This document shows positions 1,424-39,511 of a stretch of DNA of 64,000 nucleotides, in pieces. Position 1 is the stretch's first letter. Every line of letters begins with the position of its first letter. A program made the position numbers and the translations under genes. The stretch is taken from contig JAUVZX010000001.1 of NCBI GenBank assembly GCA_030602345.1, forward strand, positions 1,668 through 65,667. The letters are read 5' to 3'. Under the pieces are notes generated by a model. It was not told the DNA's origin. It was given only the letters and a program-made list of their open reading frames with translations, and searched no databases. The stretch comes from Bacilli bacterium (GTDB taxonomy: Bacteria > Bacillota_I > Bacilli_A > RF39 > UBA660).

Positions 1424-1679
1424 AATTCACCCGCAAACTATTTATATTATACTATACTAGGCTTTTATAAACAACAAAAAAACCCAGAAAAGCGACGCCA
1501 AAACGATAAAACCTGATCTTCCAGGGGGATGACTTTTTATACCATTAGGATCCTCAACTAAATGAGTGTTCAACACAAGTATAAGTTGAAGTCTTCCAAT
1601 CGTTACTACTTAGCGATTTTCATATATGACAATCGTCTTTTCTAGGTTAATTTAATTTTACCACTTATTAATATAATAT

Positions 1680-6756: not shown

Positions 6757-8619
6757 CTAATCAATTAGTTTCTTGATATAAGTAACTACTTTATCTTTAG
6801 TAAAGCCATATTTATCAAACACTTCGTCTCTTGAACCACTTGCTCCAAAAGTATCCATACTTATTATATATTTTTTATCATAAACAAATGGATACCAAGA
6901 AATAGAATGCCCCGCTTCTATCGCAATTACTTTCTTTGCAGGTGTTAAAATAGTTTTATAACTTTTAATAAATAAATTATAATCAAGTACACTAATTACT
7001 TCTAAATCGATCTTATATTTATCATATAGCTCTTGTTGAACTTCTAAAGCTACTTTAACTTCATAACCTGTCGCTAAGATGGTTCCCTGAAGATTATTTT
7101 TGTGTGGAGCTATAATATATGCTCCTTTTTCGATATTGGCAACATGATCAAAATTATTGATTTTTTCTTTTGTGACTACTAATACTGAAGGATTATTTTT
7201 AGTTATTGCTGTTTTCCAAGCTAATTTCAATTCAACTTGATCATAAGGACGATATACATTTAAATTAGGTATCATTCTTAAGTGACCTAAATGTTCAATT
7301 GGTTGATGAGTTGGACCATCTTGACCAATTGAAATTGAGTCGTGAGTAAATACGTATATTACATCTAAATTCATTAAAGCAGATAATCTTAAAGCAGGCT
7401 TTAAATAATCCATAAACGTTAAGAATGTTGAAACAACTACTTTATAACCAGACATTGCTAAACCATTGGCAATCGCAGCCATTGTATGCTCTCTTACACC
7501 ATAGTATAAGTTTTGACCCACAAAAGTATCGTTAATGGCCATAGCAGACTCTATCTTAGTTTTATTAGAAGAAAATAAATCTGCACTTCCTGAAATAAAC
7601 ATATCATTTTGTTTTCCTAAATGAGTGATTATCTTTCCATTTGAAGTTCTTAATTCTTCATTAACTTCATCAAAAACAAAATCATTTAAATTTAAAGTTA
7701 CTTTTTCTATTTTTTTCTTAGAAGTAAGATTATATTTGTCCATACTTCTTTTTAAAATCATGTTCTTATACGCTTCTTGAGCTTCTTTTGAAAACTCAAA
7801 TGCATTTTCAAATTCTAAGCTTCTTTTTACATTGGCTAAATCATCTTCTGCTAAAGGTTGACCATGAACTATATTGGTACTTTGTTTTCTAGATAATCTA
7901 CCAATAATAGTGTCGATTTTAATAATGGTTGGCTTTTTATTAGCCTTAGCTTTAGAAATAGCCTCATCTATTTTGTTAATATCTACTCCATTATTAACAT
8001 ATTCAGTAGCAAAACCAAAAGAAGCAAATCTTGCTAAAACATTTTCATCAAAAACTTTATCTATTTTTCCATCTAAACTAATGTTATTAGCGTCATATAA
8101 AATAATTAAATTATCTAAATTTAAACTTCCTGCAAGTGAAGCAGCCTCATAACTAATACCTTCCATTAAATCGCCATCACTAACTAAAACATAAACTCTA
8201 TAGTCAATTGATGGGTCTTTTTGATGCATTTTTTTAGCCGCTAAAGCCATTCCAACAGCATTCGCTATTCCTTGTCCCAATGGACCCGTTGTCGCTTCTA
8301 CACCTCTGAAAACATCTAATTCTGGATGTCCAGGAGTATGTGAATCTACTTGACGAAAATTCATCAAATCTTCCATTTTAAAATTATATCCCGCCATAAA
8401 TAAATTAGCATATAAAAGAGCACTCCCATGGCCTGCTGAAAGAACAAAACGATCTCTATTTATCCAAGCAGGATCATAAGGATTAGCAATAAGATGTTTA
8501 GAAAATAATGTATAAACTATTTCAGCAGCTCCTAAAACAATTCCAGGATGACCACTTTTAGCATTATTAATCATATCTAAACCTAAAGATTTAATATTAT
8601 TTATTATTAACTTATCCAT
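6757..8619 (-). CDS. tkt: Transketolase
   Basis: 620 aa, N-terminal SGHPG thiamine-diphosphate motif, full-length transketolase architecture. Confidence 0.9.
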   Translation of the reverse strand: MDKLIINNIKSLGLDMINNAKSGHPGIVLGAAEIVYTLFSKHLIANPYDPAWINRDRFVLSAGHGSALLYANLFMAGYNFKMEDLMNFRQVDSHTPGHPELDVFRGVEATTGPLGQGIANAVGMALAAKKMHQKDPSIDYRVYVLVSDGDLMEGISYEAASLAGSLNLDNLIILYDANNISLDGKIDKVFDENVLARFASFGFATEYVNNGVDINKIDEAISKAKANKKPTIIKIDTIIGRLSRKQSTNIVHGQPLAEDDLANVKRSLEFENAFEFSKEAQEAYKNMILKRSMDKYNLTSKKKIEKVTLNLNDFVFDEVNEELRTSNGKIITHLGKQNDMFISGSADLFSSNKTKIESAMAINDTFVGQNLYYGVREHTMAAIANGLAMSGYKVVVSTFLTFMDYLKPALRLSALMNLDVIYVFTHDSISIGQDGPTHQPIEHLGHLRMIPNLNVYRPYDQVELKLAWKTAITKNNPSVLVVTKEKINNFDHVANIEKGAYIIAPHKNNLQGTILATGYEVKVALEVQQELYDKYKIDLEVISVLDYNLFIKSYKTILTPAKKVIAIEAGHSISWYPFVYDKKYIISMDTFGASGSRDEVFDKYGFTKDKVVTYIKKLID

Positions 8620-8645
8620 AATACCTCTATTCTTATATCATTATA

Positions 8646-8675
8646 CCAAAAAAAAGAAAGTATATAAACTTTCTT
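8646..8675 (-). terminator. Rho-independent terminator for the small SOS-regulated ORF
   Basis: Hairpin AAGAAAGT-ATATAA-ACTTTCTT, followed on the minus strand by a run of 8 T, immediately after the stop of the 28-aa ORF. Confidence 0.45.
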
Positions 8676-8688
8676 TTAATTATTATAT

Positions 8689-8775
8689 CTAAGCTCCAAA
8701 GTAAGCGACAAAAGCTAAAAATATAACCATGCCCATTATATATTTGTTTAAAAATAAATAGTATAACTCTACCAT
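8689..8775 (-). CDS. Unannotated 28-aa hydrophobic peptide (MVELYYLFLNKYIMGMVIFLAFVAYFGA); candidate SOS-induced small membrane toxin or division inhibitor
   Basis: ATG preceded by GAAGGAGG at 5-nt spacing. Divergent from lexA. Its promoter carries a LexA box between -35 and -10, and it has its own terminator. Below the size cutoff of the ORF track. Confidence 0.45.
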   Translation of the reverse strand: MVELYYLFLNKYIMGMVIFLAFVAYFGA

Positions 8776-8797
8776 ATTATACCTCCTTCGTAATTCT

Positions 8798-8826
8798 ATC
8801 TTATAACAAACATTTGTTCGTGTCAA
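8798..8826 (-). promoter_or_regulatory. Sigma-A-type promoter for the small peptide gene (-35 TTGACA, 17-bp spacer, -10 TAAGAT)
   Basis: On the minus strand: TTGACA, then cgaacaaatgtttgtta, then TAAGAT. The 17-bp spacer contains the LexA box. Confidence 0.45.
8807..8820. promoter_or_regulatory. LexA operator (Cheo box-like, CGAACAAATGTTTG) inside the small-peptide promoter
   Basis: Reverse complement is CGAACAAATGTTTG, one mismatch from the CGAACnnnnGTTCG Firmicutes SOS box. Lies between the -35 and -10 of the minus-strand promoter. Confidence 0.6.
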
Positions 8827-8834
8827 TCATTAAA

Positions 8835-8848
8835 CGAACAAATGTTTG
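8835..8848. promoter_or_regulatory. LexA operator (Cheo box-like, CGAACAAATGTTTG) overlapping the -35 of the lexA promoter
   Basis: Identical 14-mer in the opposite orientation, overlapping TTGACT (8846-8851). Consistent with autoregulation of lexA. Confidence 0.6.
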
Positions 8849-8874
8849 ACTAAAGTGTAAACTTATGTTAATAT
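8846..8874 (+). promoter_or_regulatory. lexA promoter (-35 TTGACT, 17-bp spacer, -10 TAATAT)
   Basis: Hexamers read directly from the sequence, 20 nt upstream of the lexA RBS (GAGGTG). Confidence 0.5.
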
Positions 8875-8893
8875 ATTTATATAGAGGTGTTAT

Positions 8894-9511
8894 ATGAATG
8901 ATTTAACCAAAAAACAACAAATAATTTTTGATTATATTAAAAAATCTATATTAAAGAATGGATATCCTCCAACAGTAAGAGAAATAGCGAGTGATTTAGG
9001 ACTTTCTTCTCCTGCTACTATTCATGCTCATCTAACTAAGCTAGAAGAAAAAGGATTTATCAGAAAAGATAATTCTAAAAATCGCGCAATCGAATTATTA
9101 AAAGAAAAAAACAAAGAACCCATAAGCGATTTGATTGCTAAAGTTCCTCTTTTAGGAAAAGTTACTGCAGGTAATCCAATTGAAGCAATCAATAATCCTG
9201 ATGAATTCTTTGATTTACCAACTTACTTAATTCCAAGATCAAAAGAAGTATTTACTCTTTTGGTAAAAGGAGAAAGTATGATTAATGTTGGTATATACGA
9301 TGGTGATATTGTTATTATTGAAAAAACTAATCAAGTTAGAAATGGTGAAATAGTAGTAGCAATGACTGATGAAAATGAAGTAACATTAAAAACTTTCTAT
9401 AAAGAAATGGATCACGTTAGATTGCAACCAGAAAACGATTCAATGAGCCCTATTATTTTAAAAAACGTTACAATATTAGGAAAAGCAATTGGATTATATA
9501 GAAAATTATAA
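8894..9511 (+). CDS. lexA: LexA repressor (S24 peptidase)
   Basis: 205 aa, N-terminal winged-HTH (PPTVREIASDLGLSSPATIHAHL), C-terminal S24 autopeptidase (GESM). Confidence 0.9.
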   Translation: MNDLTKKQQIIFDYIKKSILKNGYPPTVREIASDLGLSSPATIHAHLTKLEEKGFIRKDNSKNRAIELLKEKNKEPISDLIAKVPLLGKVTAGNPIEAINNPDEFFDLPTYLIPRSKEVFTLLVKGESMINVGIYDGDIVIIEKTNQVRNGEIVVAMTDENEVTLKTFYKEMDHVRLQPENDSMSPIILKNVTILGKAIGLYRKL

Positions 9512-9620: not shown

Positions 9621-10439
9621 GTGATAACTATGAATTTTGCTAATAATTTACAAAATTTAAGAAAAACGAACAACATGTCTCAAGAAGACCTTGCAAACAA
9701 GCTAAATGTTTCAAGACAAACTATATCTAAATGGGAAAGCGGAACTACTTATCCCGAAAGTGATAAATTAATCGATATATCTAATTTATTTAAAGTTAAA
9801 ATCGATGATTTAATTAAGAAAGAAATAGAAGAAGAAACTATCAAAATATCCTATATAAAAGAAAGCAAATTACATGCATTTAATACAGCTTTGGGTGTAT
9901 TTATTATTTTCATGGCGGTTATTTCACTAGAAATGTTTGGTGTTTCCCCCTATCAACCAATGATTTTCTTTTCAATGATTGGTGTCGCTGTTTCATTATT
10001 TATAATATTTAACTTTAGATACGCCAACTTCAAACTAGAAAACCCTATTCTCTCTTTTTATTACTCCAAAGAAGAAATTCAAAACTTCAATACTAAATTC
10101 AGTTTTTTAATATCCTTGGGCATAATATTAATTTTATTTGGAATAGGAACTGCTAATGTTGGCGGTGAAATTGTTTTATTATCATCTGTTGCAGTCGCAG
10201 TATTTATATTCGTGTATATGGGATTATTAAAGTCTAGGTTTGATATTAATAATTACAACAACAAAGAAAAGAAAAAAGATACATTAGTAGACAAAGTAAC
10301 TTCTATCATTATGTTGTCTGCCACTTTCATATTTTTATTACTAGGATTTTTATTACATTTATGGCATATTGCATGGGTAGTATTCCCTCTAGGAGGAATT
10401 CTCTGTGGAATTGTTGCTATTATATTAGAAAAAAAATAA
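9621..10439 (+). CDS. XRE-family HTH transcriptional regulator with a C-terminal multi-TM membrane domain
   Basis: N-terminal HTH_3 (SQEDLANKLNVSRQTISKWESG), followed by about 5 hydrophobic helices. Confidence 0.6.
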   Translation: MITMNFANNLQNLRKTNNMSQEDLANKLNVSRQTISKWESGTTYPESDKLIDISNLFKVKIDDLIKKEIEEETIKISYIKESKLHAFNTALGVFIIFMAVISLEMFGVSPYQPMIFFSMIGVAVSLFIIFNFRYANFKLENPILSFYYSKEEIQNFNTKFSFLISLGIILILFGIGTANVGGEIVLLSSVAVAVFIFVYMGLLKSRFDINNYNNKEKKKDTLVDKVTSIIMLSATFIFLLLGFLLHLWHIAWVVFPLGGILCGIVAIILEKK

Positions 10440-10449
10440 GACATATGTT

Positions 10450-11610
10450 TTATTTTTTTATGATTAAAAATGATAATAATCCAATTAATAATAATGATAT
10501 TATTCTAGCATTTATCTTATCTACTTTATCTGTCTTATCATCTACACCAACTGCTAAAGTAGCTAATATACCTCCTATTAACCCTCCAATATGAGCACCA
10601 TTGTCGATACCTGGAACGGTTAATCCAATCATTAAGTTTAATAAAAGAATTGGTAGTATTTGTGATTTTAAAACATTACCTAAATATACTCGATAATAAT
10701 AACCAAATACCGCTAATGATCCTAATAAACCAAATATTGCTCCAGAGGCTCCTACCGATAAGGCACCAGGCTGCATAAATGTAAGTGACATTAAACTAGA
10801 AGAGATCAAACTGAATATATAGATGTATATAAACTTCTTTTTACCTAAAAACTTTTCGATTTGAGGTCCCAACACATATAAGGCATACATATTAAATAAT
10901 ATATGTAATAGTGATGCGTGAAGAAAACCACTTGTAAGAATTCTTATTACTTGCCCTCCTAGAACTGCATTTTTCTCTAAAGCTCCTAGAATAAATAATA
11001 GTGTTCCGTTAATATTAAATTCTCCTCTTAATAAAAACATAAATGAATATATAGCAAAATTAAAATAGATTAAAAAATTACTAATAGTAGGTTTCTTATC
11101 TTTAAATACCTTTTCTATCTTTTTATTATCTTTTTCATTTTTATTGCTAATTTCTTTAGTTAATCTAGAAAATAAAGCTTCACCTTTATCTTTTGTATTT
11201 AAAAAATTCATTAAGTTAGGAAATGATTTATTTAAAAAATCATATTTCTTAATATCTTTTTTAGCTTTTATATTAGCTATCAAAAGATTGTTATCTTCTA
11301 ACTCTTCTAAATTAATACCTTCATTTAAATTTAAGAAAATATTAATTGCTTTTACTTTAAAGGAAAAAGTTTTTTTCTTAATTTGTTTAATGACTTGTTC
11401 TGTTTTAAATAAATCTAATTGAATTTGTTCATCATTATGAATATAGTTAGTAACAATTCTAATTATTTTATAATCTTCATCCATGTTTTCTAACCATATT
11501 TCATCTTTTGCCCCATGTAAAACAATAGGATTATAATTTTTTTCAGTTATGAAGTAATGTAATAACTTCATAACCATTTCTTCATCTTTTTTAATTTTTA
11601 AAGTAGCCAT
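10450..11610 (-). CDS. Rhomboid family intramembrane serine protease (GluP/YqgP-like) with an N-terminal cytoplasmic domain
   Basis: Rhomboid core motifs are present: GASGAIFGL (catalytic Ser) and AHIGG (catalytic His). Start trimmed to M (MATLKIK) so that it abuts the rluD stop. Confidence 0.65.
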   Translation of the reverse strand: MATLKIKKDEEMVMKLLHYFITEKNYNPIVLHGAKDEIWLENMDEDYKIIRIVTNYIHNDEQIQLDLFKTEQVIKQIKKKTFSFKVKAINIFLNLNEGINLEELEDNNLLIANIKAKKDIKKYDFLNKSFPNLMNFLNTKDKGEALFSRLTKEISNKNEKDNKKIEKVFKDKKPTISNFLIYFNFAIYSFMFLLRGEFNINGTLLFILGALEKNAVLGGQVIRILTSGFLHASLLHILFNMYALYVLGPQIEKFLGKKKFIYIYIFSLISSSLMSLTFMQPGALSVGASGAIFGLLGSLAVFGYYYRVYLGNVLKSQILPILLLNLMIGLTVPGIDNGAHIGGLIGGILATLAVGVDDKTDKVDKINARIISLLLIGLLSFLIIKK

Positions 11611-11611
11611 A

Positions 11612-12496
11612 TTACTCTCCTTTATAGATTTTAATAATATTTTCCATTTCTTCTGGAATACTTGCTTCAAACGTCATTTCTTTTTTAGTAGTTGGATGAA
11701 TTAAAGTAAGTCTGTATGCATGCAAACATTGTCCAAAGTCATTATGTTTACCTTTTTGACCATATACATGATCATTTACAATAGGAAAACCAATATACTG
11801 CATATGAACTCTAATTTGATGAGTTCTTCCTGTTTCTAATTCAACTTTAATTAAAGTTGCTTCTTCAAATCTTTCTAAAACCTTAAAATGAGTAATTGCT
11901 TTTTTACCCGTAGCTATAACAGTCATCTTTTTACGATCTTTTAAAGACCTTCCAATAGGAGCATCAATTGTTCCTGTATCATTTAAAATTTTACCATGAA
12001 CTAAAGCTATATATTCTCTTTTTGCATTTTTAGAAGCAATTTCATTAGCCAAGAATTCGTGAGCAGCATCATTTTTAGCTACTACTAATAGACCTGTAGT
12101 TTGAGCATCAATTCGATGAACAATTCCCGGCCTAAATGATTCTTCTTTACTTAAAACCGAGTGGTGCAATAACGCATTAACTAGCGTTCCTGTTTGATTG
12201 CCTACGGCAGGATGAACAACCATATGATTATCTTTATTTACAATAATAATGTCATCATCTTCATAAATTATATCTAGAGGAATATCTTCTGCTTTTAACA
12301 CATCTATTTCTATTTTTACTTCTTTGATAAAGATATTGTCACCTTCTTTAACACTATAGCTAGCTTTTGTTGTTTTATCATTAACTAAGATTAACTCTTT
12401 ATCAATCATTTCCTTAATTTTACTTCTACTTTTCGATAATAGTTCACTTAAATAATTATCGATTCTTATGTTATTTTTATTTACTGTGTGTTCCAT
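11612..12496 (-). CDS. rluD: 23S rRNA pseudouridine synthase, RluA/RluD family
   Basis: S4 domain followed by the HRIDAQTTGLLVVAKN catalytic motif. Paired with lspA as in other Firmicutes. Confidence 0.8.
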   Translation of the reverse strand: MEHTVNKNNIRIDNYLSELLSKSRSKIKEMIDKELILVNDKTTKASYSVKEGDNIFIKEVKIEIDVLKAEDIPLDIIYEDDDIIIVNKDNHMVVHPAVGNQTGTLVNALLHHSVLSKEESFRPGIVHRIDAQTTGLLVVAKNDAAHEFLANEIASKNAKREYIALVHGKILNDTGTIDAPIGRSLKDRKKMTVIATGKKAITHFKVLERFEEATLIKVELETGRTHQIRVHMQYIGFPIVNDHVYGQKGKHNDFGQCLHAYRLTLIHPTTKKEMTFEASIPEEMENIIKIYKGE

Positions 12497-16880: not shown

Positions 16881-17936
16881 TTAAAACACTCTCTTATTTT
16901 TCAAAAATGGAATATCATCATCCTCTGTATCAGTTTCAACATCTTTTATTTCAACACGATTAGCGAATGAATGATATAAAGGTTCTTTACCTGCTTCAAA
17001 ACCTGTTGCAATTACTGTGACAATTAACTCATCATTTAAGTTTTCATTAATAACTGCCCCAAAGATTGTATTAATATCTGTATTAGCTGCTGCTCTAACT
17101 ACTTCTAAAGCTTCTGCTACTTCAGAAAGTGCTAAATTAGTACCTCCTGTAATATTAACAATGGCATCTGTTGCTCCATGAATGCTTGTTTCTAATAAAG
17201 GACTAGACACTGCTTGTTTAGCAGCTTCTGTTGCTCTATTTTCACCTACACCAAGTCCAATACCAATTAAAGCATTTCCTCTGTTTTCCATTACTGTTTT
17301 AACATCTGCAAAGTCTAAGTTAATCAATCCTGAAACTTGAATTAAATCTGATATTGACTGAACACCTCTTCTTAAAACATTATCAACTTCTTTGAAAGAG
17401 TCAAGTAATGGCGTTGTTTTATCAATCAATTCACGAAGACGATCATTTGGAACAACTATCAATGTATCAACATGCTTTTTAAGATCTTCTAATCCATTTA
17501 AAGCTTGATCCATTCTTCTTTTTCCTTCGAAAGAAAAAGGTTTAGTAACGATTCCAACTGTAAGAGCTCCTAGATCTTTTGCAATACTAGCGATTACTGG
17601 TGCAGCACCTGTTCCGGTACCACCACCCATACCACAAGTAATAAAAACCATGTCTGCATTATCTAAAGCAGCAATAATTTCTTCTTTACTTTCTAAAGCA
17701 GCATCTCTACCAACTCCTGGGTTTGCTCCAGCACCTAATCCATTAGTTAAACTCTTACCTAATTGAATTTTAGTTGGTGCTTTGGCATCGTTCAATACTT
17801 GTAAATCAGTATTTGCTACGATGAAATCAACACCCTTAACACCTGATTCAATCATTCTATTAACTGCGTTATTGCCGCCACCACCGACACCAATAACTTT
17901 AATCTTTGCTAACTGATCCATTTCTAAACCAAACAT
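16881..17936 (-). CDS. ftsZ: Cell division protein FtsZ
   Basis: GGGTGTG tubulin signature, 351 aa. Confidence 0.95.
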
Positions 17937-17945
17937 ATATTCCTC

Positions 17946-19196
17946 CTACTCGTTAAAAAAGAAGCCAAACAATTTTCCGATCATATTATCGTTTGAAATC
18001 CCCAAACTATTTCTCTTGGTTTGTGATAATTGTTCGATATCATCTTCATCGAACATTGTATAATTTTTGCCTTTTAACTTAAGCTTACTTATAAAGTATA
18101 CAATACTTCCTAGTGCTGGTGCAAATTTATTGTTTCTAAGTCCTATTAAGTTCATATTACCAACTTTTGCCAATGACCCAAAAACATCATTTACGACATA
18201 CTCGAAGTGTGCCATATTACTAGTACCGCCTGTTAATATTATATAATCAATTTGACGATTTGTTAAGGTTTTTAGTTGTTTTTTTGCATTTTCTAAAATA
18301 TCTCTTATTCTTTGCATCACGATATCTGAAACTTCAAACTGATTTATTTTTAATTTGACACCATCACGATTGATTATTTCTTGAATATCAGTCGTTTGAG
18401 CATACATCTTATGAGCAAATGCAAATTTTTCTTTTAAAGTTCTTCCTTGCTTATTAGTTAATTTATATATTGTTGCTAAATCAGAATCAATATCATCGCC
18501 ACCCATATTTAATAATGCTTGTTTAACTACGATTCCTTTATTATATAAAGAAACTGTTGTTACTGACGCTCCTACATTGATTACTGCTCCAATACCCTCT
18601 TTTATCTTTTGGTCTTTAAAAACATTAATTTCTCCTAAAGCGTTGATAGTTATATCAACTACTTCAACGCCAATACCCGTTACTAATGAAACAACTGATG
18701 CTATATTCTTTTTAGGAGTAGTTATAATAATTGATTTATTTTTGAGATGTGAAGAAACGAGATTCTTTGGATCTTCGATTTGTTCATAACCATCCAAAGT
18801 AAAATTAATAGGAACAATCGTCATGAAAGCATATTTGTCTTCCATTCTATAACTATCGATTGCATTGTCTAAAACAGCGACTAAATCACTAGAATTAATA
18901 ATGTGATTTTCATCTTCAAAAGTAATATGTCCCTCAACTAAATCAAACTTAGCTAAGTAACTAGGTATACTTGCAATAACTTTTTTGACCTCGACTCCTA
19001 AGACTGCTTCTACTTCTTTCAAAGCACTCTTCAAAGATTCTTGAGCCATTTCAACATTTGTAATCAATCCATTAGTGATACCTGCTGATTTTACTGAACT
19101 AGCAGCTAATAAATTTAATTTGTTTTTAAAAAGTTCACAAGTTACTACTTTTATACTATCTGAACCAATATCTATACTTGTATAAATGTGTTTCAT
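17946..19196 (-). CDS. ftsA: Cell division protein FtsA
   Basis: 416 aa actin-like ATPase immediately upstream of ftsZ. Confidence 0.9.
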   Translation of the reverse strand: MKHIYTSIDIGSDSIKVVTCELFKNKLNLLAASSVKSAGITNGLITNVEMAQESLKSALKEVEAVLGVEVKKVIASIPSYLAKFDLVEGHITFEDENHIINSSDLVAVLDNAIDSYRMEDKYAFMTIVPINFTLDGYEQIEDPKNLVSSHLKNKSIIITTPKKNIASVVSLVTGIGVEVVDITINALGEINVFKDQKIKEGIGAVINVGASVTTVSLYNKGIVVKQALLNMGGDDIDSDLATIYKLTNKQGRTLKEKFAFAHKMYAQTTDIQEIINRDGVKLKINQFEVSDIVMQRIRDILENAKKQLKTLTNRQIDYIILTGGTSNMAHFEYVVNDVFGSLAKVGNMNLIGLRNNKFAPALGSIVYFISKLKLKGKNYTMFDEDDIEQLSQTKRNSLGISNDNMIGKLFGFFFNE

Positions 19197-19256
19197 AACT
19201 CATCTCCATAACTAAAATTATTATACTATATTTTATATAAAAAACCAAATAAAAAA

Positions 19257-19922
19257 CTACTTAAATACCTCAAAATAAGTGCCAGCATCTAAATGCAAAA
19301 TTCCTTTTGCATAATCGAAGTTAGAAATGATCGTTAAATACTCATTTATTCTGGTCAATTTATCAGTATTTATATATACATAATTACCATCTGACATAGC
19401 AAGCAAGAAACGATCTTGATCAACCGAACTAGGACGATATTCTATCTCAGACACTCTTCTTAATACTTCATAATCTATTTTGGCTAATTGTTTTAAAAAT
19501 AAATTGAAATTTTCTTCGGGAACAAAATTAATTAAAGTAGTATTACTAAATTTACCTTCAATAATTTTGTTATCTTCCAAATATGTTTTATTATTTAACA
19601 AATCATAGAAATAAGGTTTTCTTTCAGTTACTTCGATGTTTATTTTATATAACCAACCCTTAGTAACCTTCGCATCTTTTATATAGATATTAGCTTTCAA
19701 TCTTTTTTCAATCGTATTTGTAAATGTTTGAAAAAAAGGTGGATATTCATCTATCTTAGCAAGCTCTATAATATATTGTTCTTTTAAATATAGATTTCCC
19801 TTAACTTCGATATTTCTCACCTTTTGAGAAAAGATAGTCGTTATTCCATAAAAAAGAAAATATCCAATTAAAAATACTAAGAATATTCTATCATATCTAA
19901 TTTTTACTTTCTTTTTATTCAT
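19257..19922 (-). CDS. divIB: Cell division protein DivIB/FtsQ
   Basis: 221 aa, N-terminal TM helix, POTRA-like region; conserved position between murB and ftsA. Confidence 0.7.
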   Translation of the reverse strand: MNKKKVKIRYDRIFLVFLIGYFLFYGITTIFSQKVRNIEVKGNLYLKEQYIIELAKIDEYPPFFQTFTNTIEKRLKANIYIKDAKVTKGWLYKINIEVTERKPYFYDLLNNKTYLEDNKIIEGKFSNTTLINFVPEENFNLFLKQLAKIDYEVLRRVSEIEYRPSSVDQDRFLLAMSDGNYVYINTDKLTRINEYLTIISNFDYAKGILHLDAGTYFEVFK

Positions 19923-20817
19923 ATGTACCTCTTATTATTTCTTGTTCTAAAACTAAATCAATATCAAATTTTTTCTTAACACTTTCTTTAGCCAAATTAA
20001 TTAATTCAATAATATCTTTAGCATTAGCATTATTATGATTAACAATAAAATTACTGTGTTTATCGCTTATTTTAGCACCATTTATAGCATAACCCTTAAG
20101 TCCTGCTTCTTCAATCAGCTTCCAAGCAAATAAGTCACTGGGATTCCTAAAAACACTTCCTGCATTAGGAAAATCTAATGGTTGTGTTTCAATTCTCCTT
20201 TTTCTTCGATCATCTATTATTTGAAGCAATTCTTCTTTATTACCAAATTTTAATGAAAGCGCTACTCTTATCACAGTATAATTTTTATACTTCTGTAAAA
20301 CTGAAGAACGATATCCAAATTCTAAATCTTTCAAATAAAGTCTTTTAATTTCCAAGTTCTCATTTAATATTTCTACATAAAAAACATTATCATTCATTGC
20401 TTTCTTATAAGCACCCGCATTCATGTAGATTGCACCTCCAACGGTGCCAGGAATACCTACTGCCCACTCTAAGCCTTCTAAGCCTAAATTAGCCGTTAAA
20501 TTAGCTAATTTAGTTAAATTATAGCCCGCTTCTACTATAACATCACTATTAGTTATCTCTACATTATTTAATTTAGAAAGACGAATAATAATACCTTCAT
20601 AATTACCATCAAAAATAATATTTGAACCCGTTCCTAAAATCATATATTTTAAATTATTACTCTTTATATAAACTAATAATTTAATCAATGAAGAAACACT
20701 GTCTACTTCTACTAGTACTGATGCTAAAGAAGAGATTCGATAAGTATTATATTTAGTTAAATCAACATCAAATAAAACCTCACCAACATTTAAATTAATT
20801 ATGTCTTCTTTATTCAT
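19915..20817 (-). CDS. murB: UDP-N-acetylenolpyruvoylglucosamine reductase
   Basis: 300 aa, FAD-binding MurB architecture; inside the cell-division/cell-wall cluster. Confidence 0.85.
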   Translation of the reverse strand: MNKEDIINLNVGEVLFDVDLTKYNTYRISSLASVLVEVDSVSSLIKLLVYIKSNNLKYMILGTGSNIIFDGNYEGIIIRLSKLNNVEITNSDVIVEAGYNLTKLANLTANLGLEGLEWAVGIPGTVGGAIYMNAGAYKKAMNDNVFYVEILNENLEIKRLYLKDLEFGYRSSVLQKYKNYTVIRVALSLKFGNKEELLQIIDDRRKRRIETQPLDFPNAGSVFRNPSDLFAWKLIEEAGLKGYAINGAKISDKHSNFIVNHNNANAKDIIELINLAKESVKKKFDIDLVLEQEIIRGTYE

Positions 20818-21884
20818 ATTAATTTCCTAATTTCTTCGTATATTTTGGTTGCACTATCCTTGATTTCCATCTTAGTTAAATTATCTTTGATCAATTCTAA
20901 TCGTTCATCATTAAAAATTAATGAATTTACTTCTTCTTTTAATAATTCACTTGTAACGTCTTCTTCTTTTAAGACAATACCCGCATTATTCTTCATAAAC
21001 GAAACTGCATTTTTATATTGATGATCATTTGGAACAAAAGGACTAGGTATTAAAATTGAAGGTAATTTTAACGAAATTATTTCACTCAATGTAGAAGCAC
21101 CACATCTAGTAATAACTACATCTGCTCTTTTCATAATCCTAGTTTGATTTTCAACATAAGGAAAAATATGAACATTAGAATTGAATTTATTTTTTACTAT
21201 CTCATCATAAGAAGCAGCTCCTGTAACAAACATAACTTCATAAGAATCATCAATTGTTTTAAGAAAATCTACTATTTTATTACTTAAAACAGACGCTCCT
21301 AAAGATCCTAAGACAATATATAATAATTTCTTATCTTCACTTAATCCAAATTCAGTTTTAGAAGATGGAATTGTTTGCAAAGCCTCTTCCCCACATGGAT
21401 TACCTGTAAAAATAATTTTATCTTTATATTTATCAATCGTACTTTCCTCAAAAGAAATAAATATTTTGTTAACAAATCTTGCTAAAGCAACATTAGAAAA
21501 ACCAAAAACACTATTTTGTTCATGAACCACTGTTTTAACAGAAGAGAAATATCCTGCCATAATTACAGGAAAAGTGACATAACCACCTACTCCAATTATA
21601 ATATCTGGTTTAAATTTTTTTATTTCTTTTTTTACGATAAAAAAAGCTTTAATCATCTTAAAGATAATCTCAAAGTTTTTTAAGATTTTTTTACGATTTA
21701 GACCATAAACCTCTAACTCTAAATAAGGTATATTTTTAGAAGGAATAATCTTTTTTTCCATACGATTATGAGTTCCTATATACAAAAACTCACTATTAGG
21801 TTCTTTTTCTTTTATTTTATTTAATATGGCTAAAGCAGGATAAATATGACCACCTGTTCCACCAGCACTTATAATAACTCTCAT
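20814..21884 (-). CDS. murG: UDP-N-acetylglucosamine--N-acetylmuramyl-(pentapeptide) pyrophosphoryl-undecaprenol N-acetylglucosamine transferase
   Basis: 356 aa, MRVIISAGGTGGHIYPALA N-terminus typical of MurG. Confidence 0.9.
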   Translation of the reverse strand: MRVIISAGGTGGHIYPALAILNKIKEKEPNSEFLYIGTHNRMEKKIIPSKNIPYLELEVYGLNRKKILKNFEIIFKMIKAFFIVKKEIKKFKPDIIIGVGGYVTFPVIMAGYFSSVKTVVHEQNSVFGFSNVALARFVNKIFISFEESTIDKYKDKIIFTGNPCGEEALQTIPSSKTEFGLSEDKKLLYIVLGSLGASVLSNKIVDFLKTIDDSYEVMFVTGAASYDEIVKNKFNSNVHIFPYVENQTRIMKRADVVITRCGASTLSEIISLKLPSILIPSPFVPNDHQYKNAVSFMKNNAGIVLKEEDVTSELLKEEVNSLIFNDERLELIKDNLTKMEIKDSATKIYEEIRKLI

Positions 21885-21932: not shown

Positions 21933-22733
21933 TTAAAATAATAAGCGAATTAGTAAAATAATTCCTAAAACTAATCGATAATAGAAAAATATTTTATACG
22001 AATTTTTCTTAATATAATCTAATAAGAAATGAATAACTAAGATTCCTGTTAAAAAAGAAAATATAACTCCTATTACAATTGAATCTAAATTAGTAGTTAA
22101 TATTACATTAAAATTATCATCTAACACTGTCAATAAAGTTGCTCCTAACATGACAGGAATACTTAAATAAAATGAAAATTTAGCAGCTGCTACTCTTTTA
22201 ATACCTAGGTATCTTGCTGACATAATTGTCATTCCCGATCTTGAAAAACCAGGAAATAAAGCAAACATCTGAGCTATACCAATTATTAAAGCATCAATAT
22301 AACTTATATCATCTATCTCTTTATCATTCTTACCTTTTTTATCAAAATAGTATAGTAAATATCCAATGACAATTAAAAATATCCCAATTAGAAATAAGTT
22401 ATTTCTAAAATAGCGATCAATAACTGAAGAAAACAATAAACCTGTTATAACTGCAGGTATGGTACCTATAATTAATAGAAAAACTAATTTCATTTTTCTT
22501 TCAACAAAGAAATCATATGCAATCTTAAATAAATCTTTAAAGAAATAAGTTAAGATGGCAAGTAACGTTCCAAAATGAAGAGCAATGTCTAAAGCTAATA
22601 ACATTTTAGAATCTAATAAAGTTCCCATGTTGTAAAAACTTCTCATAATTATTAAATGAGCCGAAGAAGAAACAGGTAAAAACTCTGTTATTCCTTGAAC
22701 TATCGCTAAAAAGATTATTTCCAATATTTTCAT
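21933..22733 (-). CDS. uppP: Undecaprenyl-diphosphatase
   Basis: 266 aa, 8 TM, EFLPVSSSAHL motif. Confidence 0.85.
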   Translation of the reverse strand: MKILEIIFLAIVQGITEFLPVSSSAHLIIMRSFYNMGTLLDSKMLLALDIALHFGTLLAILTYFFKDLFKIAYDFFVERKMKLVFLLIIGTIPAVITGLLFSSVIDRYFRNNLFLIGIFLIVIGYLLYYFDKKGKNDKEIDDISYIDALIIGIAQMFALFPGFSRSGMTIMSARYLGIKRVAAAKFSFYLSIPVMLGATLLTVLDDNFNVILTTNLDSIVIGVIFSFLTGILVIHFLLDYIKKNSYKIFFYYRLVLGIILLIRLLF

Positions 22734-24090: not shown

Positions 24091-24894
24091 TATAAATACT
24101 AACCATTCTGGCGCTAAAATAATTATTAAACCCATGATAACCATGATAATACCACCAATTAAACTTGAATATTTACTAATTTTTTGTGATACTCCAAGCA
24201 TCTTGAAACTAAATACGGCAATTGCAAATATGATTAAATCATCAATTAAGAAGAATAATACATATAAGAATGTATAAAATAATTGCATACTTCCTGTTAC
24301 ATTATTTACTGCTAAAACCTGAGAAAATAACAAAGGAAACCCTGCTGAACAAGCTAGTTCAATTAAATTAACACTGATTGCTAAAAAGACTACTCCTAAT
24401 AAAGCCAAAGGCATACTTTGCTCTTTAACAATATTTTTAACTCTTTCAACAATTTTATTTCTTTTACGATCATCTACTACTTCACAACCATCTTCATCAG
24501 TATTGAAATACTTCTTAAGATTGATTGCTCCTCCTGCAATTGACACAAGAGCAATCGCTATTCTTAACCAATATATAGTAGAAAATTCAACTGAAATCTT
24601 AACCCAAGATAACAATACTAAGTAGTACAACGCTGCCGTTGTAAATAAGAAAGCAAAACCTAAAATCCACAATCTTTTACGATCTTTCATTCCAGAAAGC
24701 ATACTAATTAAAAAGATTAAAACCCACATTGCACAAGGATTAAAACCATCTAAAGCTCCCAGTAAAATACTAATCGCTGGAATTGATACTGTTGCTAAAT
24801 CAATCTCTCCTGCAATAGGAAGCGTAACGACTTGAGCACTTACTAACACTGGAACTAAGAATAAAAACATTGCGTATACTAAATATTTTTTCAT
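24085..24894 (-). CDS. CcdA/DsbD-like thiol-disulfide membrane protein (divergent)
   Basis: 269 aa, signal peptide plus 6 TM, two membrane-embedded cysteines (DGFNPC, ELACSAG), adjacent to two thioredoxin-fold genes. Confidence 0.4.
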   Translation of the reverse strand: MKKYLVYAMFLFLVPVLVSAQVVTLPIAGEIDLATVSIPAISILLGALDGFNPCAMWVLIFLISMLSGMKDRKRLWILGFAFLFTTAALYYLVLLSWVKISVEFSTIYWLRIAIALVSIAGGAINLKKYFNTDEDGCEVVDDRKRNKIVERVKNIVKEQSMPLALLGVVFLAISVNLIELACSAGFPLLFSQVLAVNNVTGSMQLFYTFLYVLFFLIDDLIIFAIAVFSFKMLGVSQKISKYSSLIGGIIMVIMGLIIILAPEWLVFIF

Positions 24895-25403
24895 TATACT
24901 TTTTTCTTAGGTGCCGCAAATAAGAAGACACCACCTAATACAATTAAAATAAAGACGACTGCAACAGCACTATTACTTGTATTAGAACCATGAATTGAAG
25001 GCAAACCTACTAAATCTGCCACTAATAAAACGATACTTTGATCATCGCCATTATAATTATCAATAGCTCTTTCAATATCAGGATTCATATAATCTGCATA
25101 GCCAGAAAAATGTCTACTACCAATTACCATTAAAGGAACTGATGTTTGTTTACTTGCTTCTATTTTATAGTAATCTGCCGCTTTTTTTAAACCTTGTAAA
25201 TTAGTTGAATTATACCAAGTTTCGTAGTATATAACATTTAAGTTCTTTTCTTCTTTAATTGTATTTAAATATTCTTCTAATCTTGCACAATAAGCACATT
25301 CTTTTCCAACAAAGACATAAACATTCACTTTATCTTCTGCTTTAACCATTAATGGCATAAACATTGCTAAAATTAATGCTACACTAAATAATATTTTTTT
25401 CAT
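24894..25403 (-). CDS. Thioredoxin-fold protein (CAYC active site) with signal peptide and C-terminal membrane anchor
   Basis: 169 aa, N-terminal signal sequence, CAYC motif, C-terminal TM helix. Confidence 0.5.
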   Translation of the reverse strand: MKKILFSVALILAMFMPLMVKAEDKVNVYVFVGKECAYCARLEEYLNTIKEEKNLNVIYYETWYNSTNLQGLKKAADYYKIEASKQTSVPLMVIGSRHFSGYADYMNPDIERAIDNYNGDDQSIVLLVADLVGLPSIHGSNTSNSAVAVVFILIVLGGVFLFAAPKKKV

Positions 25404-37606: not shown

Positions 37607-39511
37607 TTACCAATTTAATAATTGATCTTTAGTTAGCGCGGTAAATAATACTTCATTATCACCATAAGACCTACCATAAGCATGGAAAGTTCCATCACTT
37701 GTTATCACAAAGTACCATGGAGTTGAGTCTGTTCCTTCGTAATAATCAATAGTATTAATATTATTTAAATTCATTACTCTATAATATAACATTCCATAAG
37801 CGAAAATTGATTGATAATCTACAAAATAACGTCCGAAAGCTTCTTCAGTTAAAGTCATTACTAACATCATTTCTTCTCCAGTTAAACCTCCAAAACAATT
37901 AGCTACTATCTCTTCATTGCTTTGCTGAGTTAAGGCACACCTACCATAAGGTTCATACGCTTCGTGTTCAACAGGAAATCCCAATCCATTTTCCTGAATA
38001 TCCATCATGGCAGTCATAAATAAACTCTCTAAACTATTAAAATCAAAAGCCATTCCACTAATAATCATCGCATTATTAGAGTCCAATGTAATACCAATTA
38101 ATGACTTCTTATAATCATTGTCTGGAATTGGATTCATACTAGTTGAAATATTATAATGGCCTCTGTTTACAAAAAGATTTTTAATTCCTTCTTGAACAAC
38201 TTTAGTAGGAATATTATTCAACTCATCCCAATAAAATAATTGCCCGTTTGTTTTCAAACCATAATATAAAGGTTGGCTTCTTCCTAACACCGTATTTTCT
38301 ACTTTTTGAATGTCTTTTATACCATTCAAGGTTGCATTAGCAACTGGCGTATTATAGTATACTTGTGAACTTGGTAAGCCAAGTTGTCCTAAGTTGTTAT
38401 GTCCCCATACCATTACTGTTCCATTTTCTAAAACTGCATATGTACTAGCAATAAATGAATGAGGCCCTCCTTCAAATCCATCCCTTGCTGAAAAAGTAAA
38501 TATATCTCTAACGTTATTTAATCCTGGAATTAACTTAGGTGAATTCGCATAATTGTAAGTCCCTGTAACTAAACTGGTGTTTGTATGAGTATAATCTGCT
38601 GCTGCACCACCTATATTAGCACCCCATGCCATAACTGTTCCATTTTCTAAAATTGCATATGCAGATGTTTCACTAATTACTAGTTTTCTAACATTAGTTA
38701 ACCCAGGTATTGTTGTTAACGGTTCTGATGTATTTGAACTCTCGTAACCAATTAGATTAACTAATGTATATGCACCAGTAACTCCTCCAGATGATCCTTG
38801 TGACATTACTGTTCCGTCATTCATAAGATAAAATCTAGTACCACTGTGTACGTTTAGGTAATTGAAATCTCTAACACCTGTATTTAATAAAGTTGCATTT
38901 AATGTATCATAATTTAATTGATATAAGTTTCCATCTTTTGTTAAAACATAAATATTTTGAGCATTATATGGATATACGTCTTTAACATTAGCAATTGCTA
39001 TTTCTTGCCAAGCGCTAGTTGAAAAAGATTGCATATTTTTCTTAATAAATAATTCACCTGACTTCGAAACTAGCATGCCGAAGTTCCCCATCCAACTATA
39101 AGAAGATTTATATATTGCAAATCCTATTCCGTCTGCTTCGCAATCATCGCCATTTTCACTAACTATGACTTCGATAGAGTCATAATCTTTTATATAACAT
39201 CTGTCGTTATATACTGCAGCAACATAAATATTTTGATCTTCTCTAACCATTATTACTGCACTGTCTGGTCTTTTTCCATTTATATTAACAAATTCATATA
39301 TATTTGTTTCAAATGGAAATTCACCATCGCCTGTTATTTCTTGTAAGAAATACTCTTCGCCTGCTTTAACTAAATTTCTTACACTCGCGATATCTGCTCT
39401 TCTAGCAGCTTCATCGATCATTCTTAGTGCATTTGGTACTGTTATTAATGCTATTATTGCTAACACTACCATCACTACTAATAATTCGATTAATGTAAAA
39501 CCTTTTTTCAT
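37607..39511 (-). CDS. Prepilin-type N-terminal cleavage/methylation domain protein fused to RCC1-like repeat (beta-propeller) region; orphan pseudopilin-like protein
   Basis: MKKGFTLIELLVVMVVLAIIALI is a class III signal with the G|FTLIE prepilin peptidase site. Downstream there are repeated GTVMAWG, GTVMVWGHNNLGQLG and LKTNGQLFYWD RCC1-type repeats. 634 aa. Own promoter region and RBS AGGGGGA. Confidence 0.6.
   Translation of the reverse strand: MKKGFTLIELLVVMVVLAIIALITVPNALRMIDEAARRADIASVRNLVKAGEEYFLQEITGDGEFPFETNIYEFVNINGKRPDSAVIMVREDQNIYVAAVYNDRCYIKDYDSIEVIVSENGDDCEADGIGFAIYKSSYSWMGNFGMLVSKSGELFIKKNMQSFSTSAWQEIAIANVKDVYPYNAQNIYVLTKDGNLYQLNYDTLNATLLNTGVRDFNYLNVHSGTRFYLMNDGTVMSQGSSGGVTGAYTLVNLIGYESSNTSEPLTTIPGLTNVRKLVISETSAYAILENGTVMAWGANIGGAAADYTHTNTSLVTGTYNYANSPKLIPGLNNVRDIFTFSARDGFEGGPHSFIASTYAVLENGTVMVWGHNNLGQLGLPSSQVYYNTPVANATLNGIKDIQKVENTVLGRSQPLYYGLKTNGQLFYWDELNNIPTKVVQEGIKNLFVNRGHYNISTSMNPIPDNDYKKSLIGITLDSNNAMIISGMAFDFNSLESLFMTAMMDIQENGLGFPVEHEAYEPYGRCALTQQSNEEIVANCFGGLTGEEMMLVMTLTEEAFGRYFVDYQSIFAYGMLYYRVMNLNNINTIDYYEGTDSTPWYFVITSDGTFHAYGRSYGDNEVLFTALTKDQLLNW

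Follow-up and report, generated by a model that had tools for sequence, protein, structure and literature searches.

An overlooked 28-codon gene divergent from lexA in a member of the Bacilli probably encodes a tail-less form of a small SOS membrane protein

The DNA considered here is a 64-kb stretch of contig JAUVZX010000001.1 (assembly GCA_030602345.1) from a member of the Bacilli, referred to below, at its full length, as the window, and the element in question is a 28-codon open reading frame (ORF) that lies on its minus strand divergently from lexA, the two ATG codons (8775 on the minus strand and 8894 on the plus strand) being 118 nt apart. This small ORF is a genuine gene that has been overlooked by annotation. 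On comparative sequence grounds we hold with high confidence that it is a real LexA-controlled small-protein gene, orthologous to a family of proteins of about 47 aa that lie divergently from lexA in related bacteria. As to its function, the evidence as a whole leans, by analogy with characterised systems, towards a LexA-controlled, tail-less member of this family that would most likely act as an SOS-induced membrane division inhibitor of the YneA/SosA/SidA kind.

The expression signals of the gene (Table 1) correspond closely to those described in the original prediction, which had been made from the letters of the DNA. The coordinates and codons of the ORF were verified, a good Shine-Dalgarno sequence that had been placed 5 nt before the ATG was found as GAAGGAGG at a distance of 6 nt (5 nt when the next T is counted), and the perfect -35 hexamer, the 17-bp spacer with its Cheo-type LexA box, the -10 hexamer TAAGAT and the identical box over the -35 element of lexA are all present at the positions that had been given for them. 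In the promoter scan the hexamers of the small-ORF promoter reach 10 of 12 consensus matches, with TTA standing between the LexA box and TAAGAT and 8 nt between the latter and GAAGGAGG; if transcription begins about 7 nt past the -10 element, near position 8791, the leader would be about 16 nt long and almost all of it would be ribosome site. A 45-aa extension of the frame starting at TTG (8826..8689) was rejected, its start falling within the -35 hexamer. No gene is called between tkt and lexA on the identical contig in the Logan collection, and the exact 28-aa peptide was not found among about 15 billion proteins, in agreement with the claim that the gene had escaped annotation. The encoded peptide, MVELYYLFLNKYIMGMVIFLAFVAYFGA, has a mean Kyte-Doolittle value of 1.51, and its residues 12-28 are uncharged and hydrophobic, from which a single N-terminal transmembrane helix is predicted.

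The LexA boxes, which are of the form that LexA of Bacillus subtilis also recognises, stand out clearly from the background of the window. With up to one mismatch allowed, the box pattern is matched by five strand-hits over the 64 kb, the corresponding number in shuffled sequence being 1.13 +/- 1.12 and no shuffle coming to five; the two sites between the small gene and lexA, counted on both strands, account for four of these five. The remaining LexA-box-like site, GGAACTGATGTTTG at 25135-25148 (+), carries one mismatch, is situated within the ORF at 24894-25403 and is probably due to chance. Facing each other, with their starts 28 bp apart, the two boxes make up an imperfect palindrome that spans about 42 bp in the region 8800-8855. 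At the other end of the gene, the original prediction had described a strong hairpin followed by a T8 terminator; both the hairpin and the T-run are there, but the strength is not, as the AU-rich stem (8677-8652) contains two G-C pairs and has a folding energy of -10 kcal/mol (z = -3.6, with none of 200 shuffles folding as well). This hairpin was absent from the output of a terminator scan based on G+C content, and the window as a whole has 27.6% G+C; the structure is real but modest as a terminator.

Further evidence for the gene comes from its relatives, which were retrieved by means of the window LexA and comprised 160 loci, 80 from genomes and 80 from metagenomes, in which LexA is 61-74% identical to that of the window. 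All of them are uncultured metagenome-assembled genomes, mostly gut-derived, and they are labelled, among others, as Bacilli, Mollicutes, Tenericutes, Mycoplasmatota, Candidatus Faecisoma, Ca. Scybalousia and Ca. Faecenecus. From the small ORFs that diverge from lexA in these relatives a family profile was derived, and with it a member is detected upstream of lexA and in reverse orientation to it in 140 of the 160 loci; in several of the 20 misses the upstream sequence is simply absent. Among the relatives these proteins are 42-55 aa long and share a layout in which a short basic N-terminus (consensus MKEMLKSK) is followed by one hydrophobic helix, often ended by Tyr, and by a polar, acidic tail of 20-25 residues; the tails commonly finish in a hydrophobic-x-hydrophobic-Asn-x motif, as in ITINNK, VMNIQ, LIINK and ISVNA. 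By analogy with the CtpA-dependent turnover of SosA and YneA, the tail-end motif could be a degradation signal, which tail-less forms would then escape. When collections of 5.8 billion and 1.84 billion proteins were searched with the family profile, only short proteins lacking a Pfam domain were returned, and those that bear a source name are called 'hypothetical protein'; in the set of 1.84 billion the family is represented by 88 clusters (50% identity), whose lengths range from 41 to 82 aa and, with few exceptions, from 41 to 60 aa. When the peptide and six family members were compared with Pfam and NCBIfam, no family match was obtained at E <= 1, and one member showed sub-threshold SecE/CobD noise.

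Differences between similar family members fall on codon positions 1, 2 and 3 in the numbers 361, 174 and 672, the pairs compared not being independent, and this bias of substitutions towards the third position is, on the sequences compared, the coding signature of the family. These observations bear directly on one of the alternatives, namely that the small ORF has arisen by chance and that the LexA promoter yields a non-coding transcript or merely serves the regulation of lexA. Such an explanation would suit the general abundance of short ORFs and the restriction of the 28-aa form to a single genome among those seen; on the other hand, an ORF with a ribosome site occurs at a constant distance from the operator in 140 of the 160 relatives, substitutions are biased towards the third codon position, and both length and helix are conserved across the 88 clusters. 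Judged on these comparative sequence data, a chance ORF is excluded, and we assign it hardly any probability. Conservation in relatives, which the original prediction had singled out as informative, was thus seen for the family ORF, its ribosome site and the LexA boxes alike, in the form of the 42-55-aa protein.

The control region has been conserved together with the coding sequence. A total of 117 loci could be examined, these being the ones in which the small gene stands alone and the sequence is long enough, and in 115 of them a LexA box (at most two mismatches) starts 40-59 nt before the ATG of the small ORF. In every relative locus displayed, TTGACA abuts the LexA box and is followed by a -10 element of the TGnTAnnAT type, and both LexA boxes are present in 97 relatives, 75 of which keep them at a spacing of 28-29 bp. 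With the operator-in-spacer promoter kept to this extent, LexA control of the small gene, as had been proposed from the window, is very probable, and the conservation of operator and promoter is as strong as evidence from sequence alone allows. A survey of terminators in the relatives was uninformative, its criteria being so strict that the hairpin of the window was itself missed, and no conclusion was drawn from it. The small gene is dispensable in some lineages: it is gone from L060, where tkt is directly divergent from lexA, and from L077 and L079, where the UPF0154 gene takes that divergent position, and L096 has a frameshifted copy of an L014-type protein. In a further sub-clade (L049-L058, L067, L127, L129 and L130) the LexA-boxed promoter drives two genes, of which the first is an ORF of 60-62 aa (MEYYT...; in L049 the locus lies on the strand opposite to lexA, 142-330 nt upstream of it) that weakly resembles the ICEBs1 excisionase family, at a score far below the cut-off (NCBIfam E = 5e-4), and the second encodes a membrane protein of 46 aa; this arrangement looks like an SOS operon with an additional small DNA-binding-like protein.

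With regard to the place of the window gene in this family, its control region can be matched base for base to those of the nearest relatives, L162 (LexA 76%), L164 and L002, and its operator-to-ATG distance equals theirs. Within the peptide, N10-K11 aligns with the N/S-K motif that precedes the helix in the family and Y25-F26 with the conserved Tyr-Phe that ends it, the stop codon coming three residues past the conserved Tyr and two past the Tyr-Phe pair. Because position, promoter and alignment register agree, the window gene is regarded as an ortholog, and the clear reading of the three together is that of a family member from which the whole extracellular tail has been lost. The polar C-terminal tail with its hydrophobic-x-hydrophobic-Asn signature is absent from the window peptide, as it is from a 32-aa form found in L019 and L098, and alignment with the relatives disclosed no tail remnant 3' of the window ORF, where the terminator and the tkt promoter follow immediately. 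The mean local BLOSUM62 score of the peptide against the family is 27.1, compared with 21.5 +/- 1.4 for shuffled peptides, and none of 300 shuffles reached it. Against the family hidden Markov model the peptide scores 7.9 bits, which ranks third among the window's short ORFs (about 1270) and is exceeded by 6 of 2000 peptide shuffles; no significant full-length paralog was found in the 64-kb window, the best other ORF having 10.8 bits, which is not significant. The nearest relative (LexA 76%) carries a 48-aa form, and no LexA between 76% and 100% identity was found among 5.8 billion proteins; the genome and metagenome scans gave none in this range either, and an exact look-up of LexA returned an identical contig only.

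The loss of the tail is not confined to the window. A second tail-less lineage is formed by L019 and L098, which share 95% identity in LexA and whose 32-aa small ORFs, as read from their alignment, differ by three conservative replacements and about seven synonymous changes, among them a switch of serine codon from TCT to AGC; this form occurs as four length-conserved variants on 14 contigs. The regions downstream of the gene are alike in the window and in L019, a likeness that may be that of generic terminator-plus-promoter sequence. Since the 32-aa lineage shows mostly synonymous change and a conserved length, it looks selectively maintained, and it appears that helix-only forms can be kept by selection.

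These data also allow a decaying remnant to be weighed, in which some 20 residues of tail would have been deleted, the product would be non-functional or residual and the promoter would be kept through its interlock with the autoregulation of lexA. This is a serious alternative, which we rate as unlikely. In its favour, the extracellular part is essential in both SosA (PMC6851548) and YneA (PMC13396833), the window species is a singleton without close relatives in which conservation could show, and the relatives L060, L077 and L079 have lost the gene while that of L096 is frameshifted. It is opposed by the fact that all the expression signals of the window gene are intact and near consensus (a perfect -35, a strong ribosome site and an ATG start), that a well-formed terminator stands straight after the stop with no remnant of a tail to be seen, that the interval from the stop to the start of the next gene is 69 nt (67 nt in L162, with a median of 66 nt in the relatives), pointing to a compact and tidy gene, and that the separate tail-less lineage has undergone mostly synonymous change.

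The reading as a division inhibitor draws on a comparison with known systems. Small membrane proteins divergent from lexA form an acknowledged class of SOS inhibitors of cell division among Gram-positives, and the class is not defined by homology, SosA having no clear homology to the other inhibitors that belong to it (PMC6851548). YneA of Bacillus subtilis and Listeria (about 105 aa, a helix plus LysM) occupies the same slot, its LexA boxes stand in a control region common to the two divergent genes, and its single N-terminal helix, a feature also predicted for the window peptide, binds transmembrane segment 7 of FtsW (PMC13396833). It differs from the window peptide in possessing a LysM domain that is needed for the block of septal wall synthesis and of which Pfam detects none in the peptide, and neither a yneB nor a ynzC partner gene is present in the window. 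SosA of Staphylococcus aureus (77 aa) is likewise divergent from lexA, is under LexA control and has a single N-terminal helix and no LysM; the relatives of about 47 aa resemble it in combining a helix with an extracellular tail, which has about 22-25 residues in these relatives, about 45 in SosA and none in the window peptide. We take tkt to lie near sosA in S. aureus, as it does in the window. In this class, to which YneA, SosA, ChiZ and DivS belong, the C-terminal extracellular part needed for activity is a LysM domain in YneA and ChiZ and a conserved tail in SosA. All characterised Gram-positive inhibitors are longer than the proteins of the family, and the window version is shorter still and is without the domain that those inhibitors need.

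A closer match in size is provided by SidA of Caulobacter crescentus, a 29-aa membrane protein that is SOS-induced, consists essentially of one helix as long as that of the peptide and acts at a late stage of division on FtsW (PMC4211646). It belongs, unlike the window peptide, to an alphaproteobacterium, which is Gram-negative and whose LexA box is a different one. To our knowledge, sidA is not adjacent to lexA. Any resemblance would be convergent, and common ancestry is not expected. By position, regulation and architecture, the lexA-divergent family is most likely the counterpart, in its clade, of YneA, SosA and ChiZ. That the family inhibits division is, on this analogy, about an even question, and full activity of the 28-aa form has to be considered less likely than that; confidence in it is reduced because the extracellular tail is missing. 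It is a tentative and rather doubtful proposition that a bare helix of 28-32 residues suffices as an SOS division checkpoint, the tail having been lost once or twice (in the window and in L019/L098).

Several observations weigh against a division inhibitor of this kind and have to be set beside the analogy. SosA deprived of almost its whole extracellular part is inactive (PMC6851548), and the helix of YneA alone localises and binds FtsW without blocking division (PMC13396833), so that by analogy with tail-removed SosA and YneA the 28-aa form could be inactive. Pfam, NCBIfam and the profile searches detected no sequence relation of the family to YneA or SosA, the searches of 5.8 and 1.84 billion proteins provided no bridge to proteins of SosA or YneA size, and of 10 sequences from the profile searches that were read none was YneA-like. 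The orthology of the window gene itself receives modest support from the peptide sequence taken alone (7.9 bits) and rests largely on position, and the window species, which is uncultured, is isolated, its 28-codon frame having been seen in one genome that is without close relatives. Lastly, position and architecture are the only ties of the family to division, which leaves room for a different, division-unrelated role of an SOS-induced membrane peptide, such as the modulation of a membrane protease, a transporter or a wall stress response. Small membrane proteins have many roles and the family is unannotated; however, every characterised Gram-positive small membrane protein that is divergent from lexA inhibits division (PMC6851548, PMC13396833), and we regard a role outside division as improbable.

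The original prediction had likened the peptide to TisB and to SOS-induced type I toxins in general, which would depolarise the membrane and lead to dormancy, with an antisense RNA as a check. The likeness is one of size, hydrophobicity and LexA control, since TisB (29 aa) and DinQ (27 aa) of Escherichia coli are LexA-controlled, single-helix hydrophobic peptides of equal length; these toxins, however, need antisense RNAs (IstR-1 and AgrB) and a long, processed 5' untranslated region with a standby site (PMC3567139), neither of which was found at the window locus, where the predicted leader of about 16 nt is too short for such a structured region. The promoter scan, which is limited to sequence, found no promoter-like site on the plus strand across 8600-8800, so that the antisense RNA for which a search over the ORF had been suggested did not emerge. 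No complement of 20 nt or more is present elsewhere in the 64 kb, where only chance matches of 14-17 nt or less occur, and the flanking intergenic stretches of 118 nt and 69 nt are taken up by promoters and the terminator. No Rfam family reaches its gathering score near the locus; sub-threshold matches to microRNA hairpins and small RNAs (E <= 10) extend over 8743-8957, the best having E = 0.005 and 23.5 bits against a gathering score of 56.4, and the hits over 8773-8878 arise because the two inverted LexA boxes form a palindrome. There is likewise no match to a toxin family in Pfam or NCBIfam at E <= 1. The window gene has orthologs with a polar tail of 20-25 residues in the yneA/sosA slot, whereas TisB and DinQ have no polar-tailed orthologs and are not encoded beside lexA. 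The window peptide presumably also differs from TisB in having no charged residues spread along its helix. The likeness to a type I toxin is thus not upheld, and a toxin of this kind is distinctly improbable.

Returning to the reading as an SOS-induced division inhibitor, we infer LexA binding, induction, membrane insertion, division inhibition and its target from the arrangement of the locus and from the systems compared above, in the following manner. In undamaged cells, LexA on the spacer box (8820-8807) would block RNA polymerase, and LexA would also occupy the twin box at the lexA promoter. Upon DNA damage, RecA-stimulated self-cleavage of LexA would free both promoters, and a monocistronic mRNA with a short leader (from about 8791 to 8648) would be made and translated from its strong ribosome site. 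The peptide would then insert in the membrane with its N-terminus inside, E3, N10 and K11 being cytoplasmic and residues 12-28 forming the helix, and would act there on the late divisome, that is, on an FtsW-type septal wall synthase, thereby delaying division. The window version would act through its helix alone, as SidA does, or would be weakened.

The neighbourhood of the gene is consistent with its assignment to the yneA slot. The gene order of the window is lexA, the small ORF, tkt and the UPF0154/YneF-type gene, and it matches what we take to be the order in B. subtilis, lexA / yneA-yneB-ynzC / tkt / yneF; tkt is immediately downstream of the small gene in 43 of 114 relatives. The original prediction was right in naming this slot, but its view that the peptide stands there instead of a yneA-type gene has to be given up in favour of a shortened family ortholog. 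Despite the Tenericutes and Mollicutes labels of its relatives, the window organism has a peptidoglycan wall and a divisome, because murG, murB, divIB, ftsA, ftsZ and bacA are all present in the window (Table 1), and a divisome-directed inhibitor would therefore have a target.

Table 1. Coordinates of the small gene, its control elements and the neighbouring genes in the window
Feature	Position	Strand	Details and basis
Small ORF, 28 codons plus stop	8689..8775	minus	ATG 8775-8773, TAG 8691-8689; product MVELYYLFLNKYIMGMVIFLAFVAYFGA
Shine-Dalgarno sequence of small ORF, GAAGGAGG	8782..8789	minus	Read from sequence; equivalent AAGGAGG/GGAGG in relatives
Sigma-A-type promoter of small ORF	8798..8826	minus	-35 TTGACA 8826-8821, 17-nt spacer 8820-8804, -10 TAAGAT 8803-8798
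Putative LexA operator in small-ORF promoter spacer, Cheo-type box CGAACAAATGTTTG	8807..8820	minus	Pattern search; position kept in relatives
Second putative LexA operator, identical 14-mer	8835..8848	plus	Overlaps lexA -35 TTGACT (8846-8851); autoregulation
lexA promoter	8846..8874	plus	TTGACT, 17-nt spacer, TG-extended TAATAT; promoter scan
Intrinsic-terminator-like hairpin, AU-rich	8648..8677	minus	10 bp, 6-nt loop, then T-run; folding compared with shuffles
lexA, 205 aa	8894..9511	plus	LexA_DNA_bind and Peptidase_S24; ORF and domains
Transketolase gene (tkt), downstream of small ORF	6757..8619	minus	Own TGgTATAAT promoter-like site 8668-8640
UPF0154 (YneF-type) membrane protein, 70 aa	6507..6719	minus	PF03672, E = 8e-28
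ftsZ	16881-17936	minus	Wall/division cluster of the window, 16881-21884
ftsA	17946-19196	minus	Wall/division cluster
POTRA FtsQ/DivIB gene	19257-19922	minus	Wall/division cluster
murB	19915-20817	minus	Wall/division cluster
murG	20814-21884	minus	Wall/division cluster
bacA	21933-22733		Beside wall/division cluster

Some further features of the window were observed. Directly downstream of lexA, an ORF at 9621-10439 (+) encodes a protein of 272 aa with an N-terminal XRE-type helix-turn-helix and a hydrophobic, multi-pass-looking C-terminal half, which may be a membrane-bound transcription factor, and the next gene after it, at 10450-11670 on the opposite strand, encodes a rhomboid protease. A 6S RNA is located at 1477-1651 (-), with 48.8 bits to Rfam RF00013 against a gathering score of 46.4. 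At 37607-39511 (-) a protein of 634 aa combines a type IV pilin-like N-terminal methylation motif with RCC1-like repeats, an unusual architecture of the pseudopilin type.

Taken together, the window gene is to be seen as a variant of an SOS gene whose kind is already known and not as a separate invention, and to a specialist the presence of a gene at this position would come as no surprise. What is added is an unannotated gene together with a whole unnamed family, both belonging to the SOS regulon of gut bacteria that form a large and uncultured group, and the rule that a small membrane checkpoint protein stands beside lexA in Gram-positives would be extended to walled lineages that bear Tenericutes or Mollicutes labels. 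In methodological terms, searching that is anchored on LexA boxes recovers small proteins that gene callers drop. The tail-less forms represent a natural experiment on whether a helix alone can inhibit the septal synthase, which is a question left by the work on YneA and FtsW. If a bare helix does suffice, these peptides would be a Firmicute counterpart of SidA of Caulobacter, and inhibition of the septal synthase would be achieved by helix-helix contact alone, where YneA and SosA need a domain outside the membrane.

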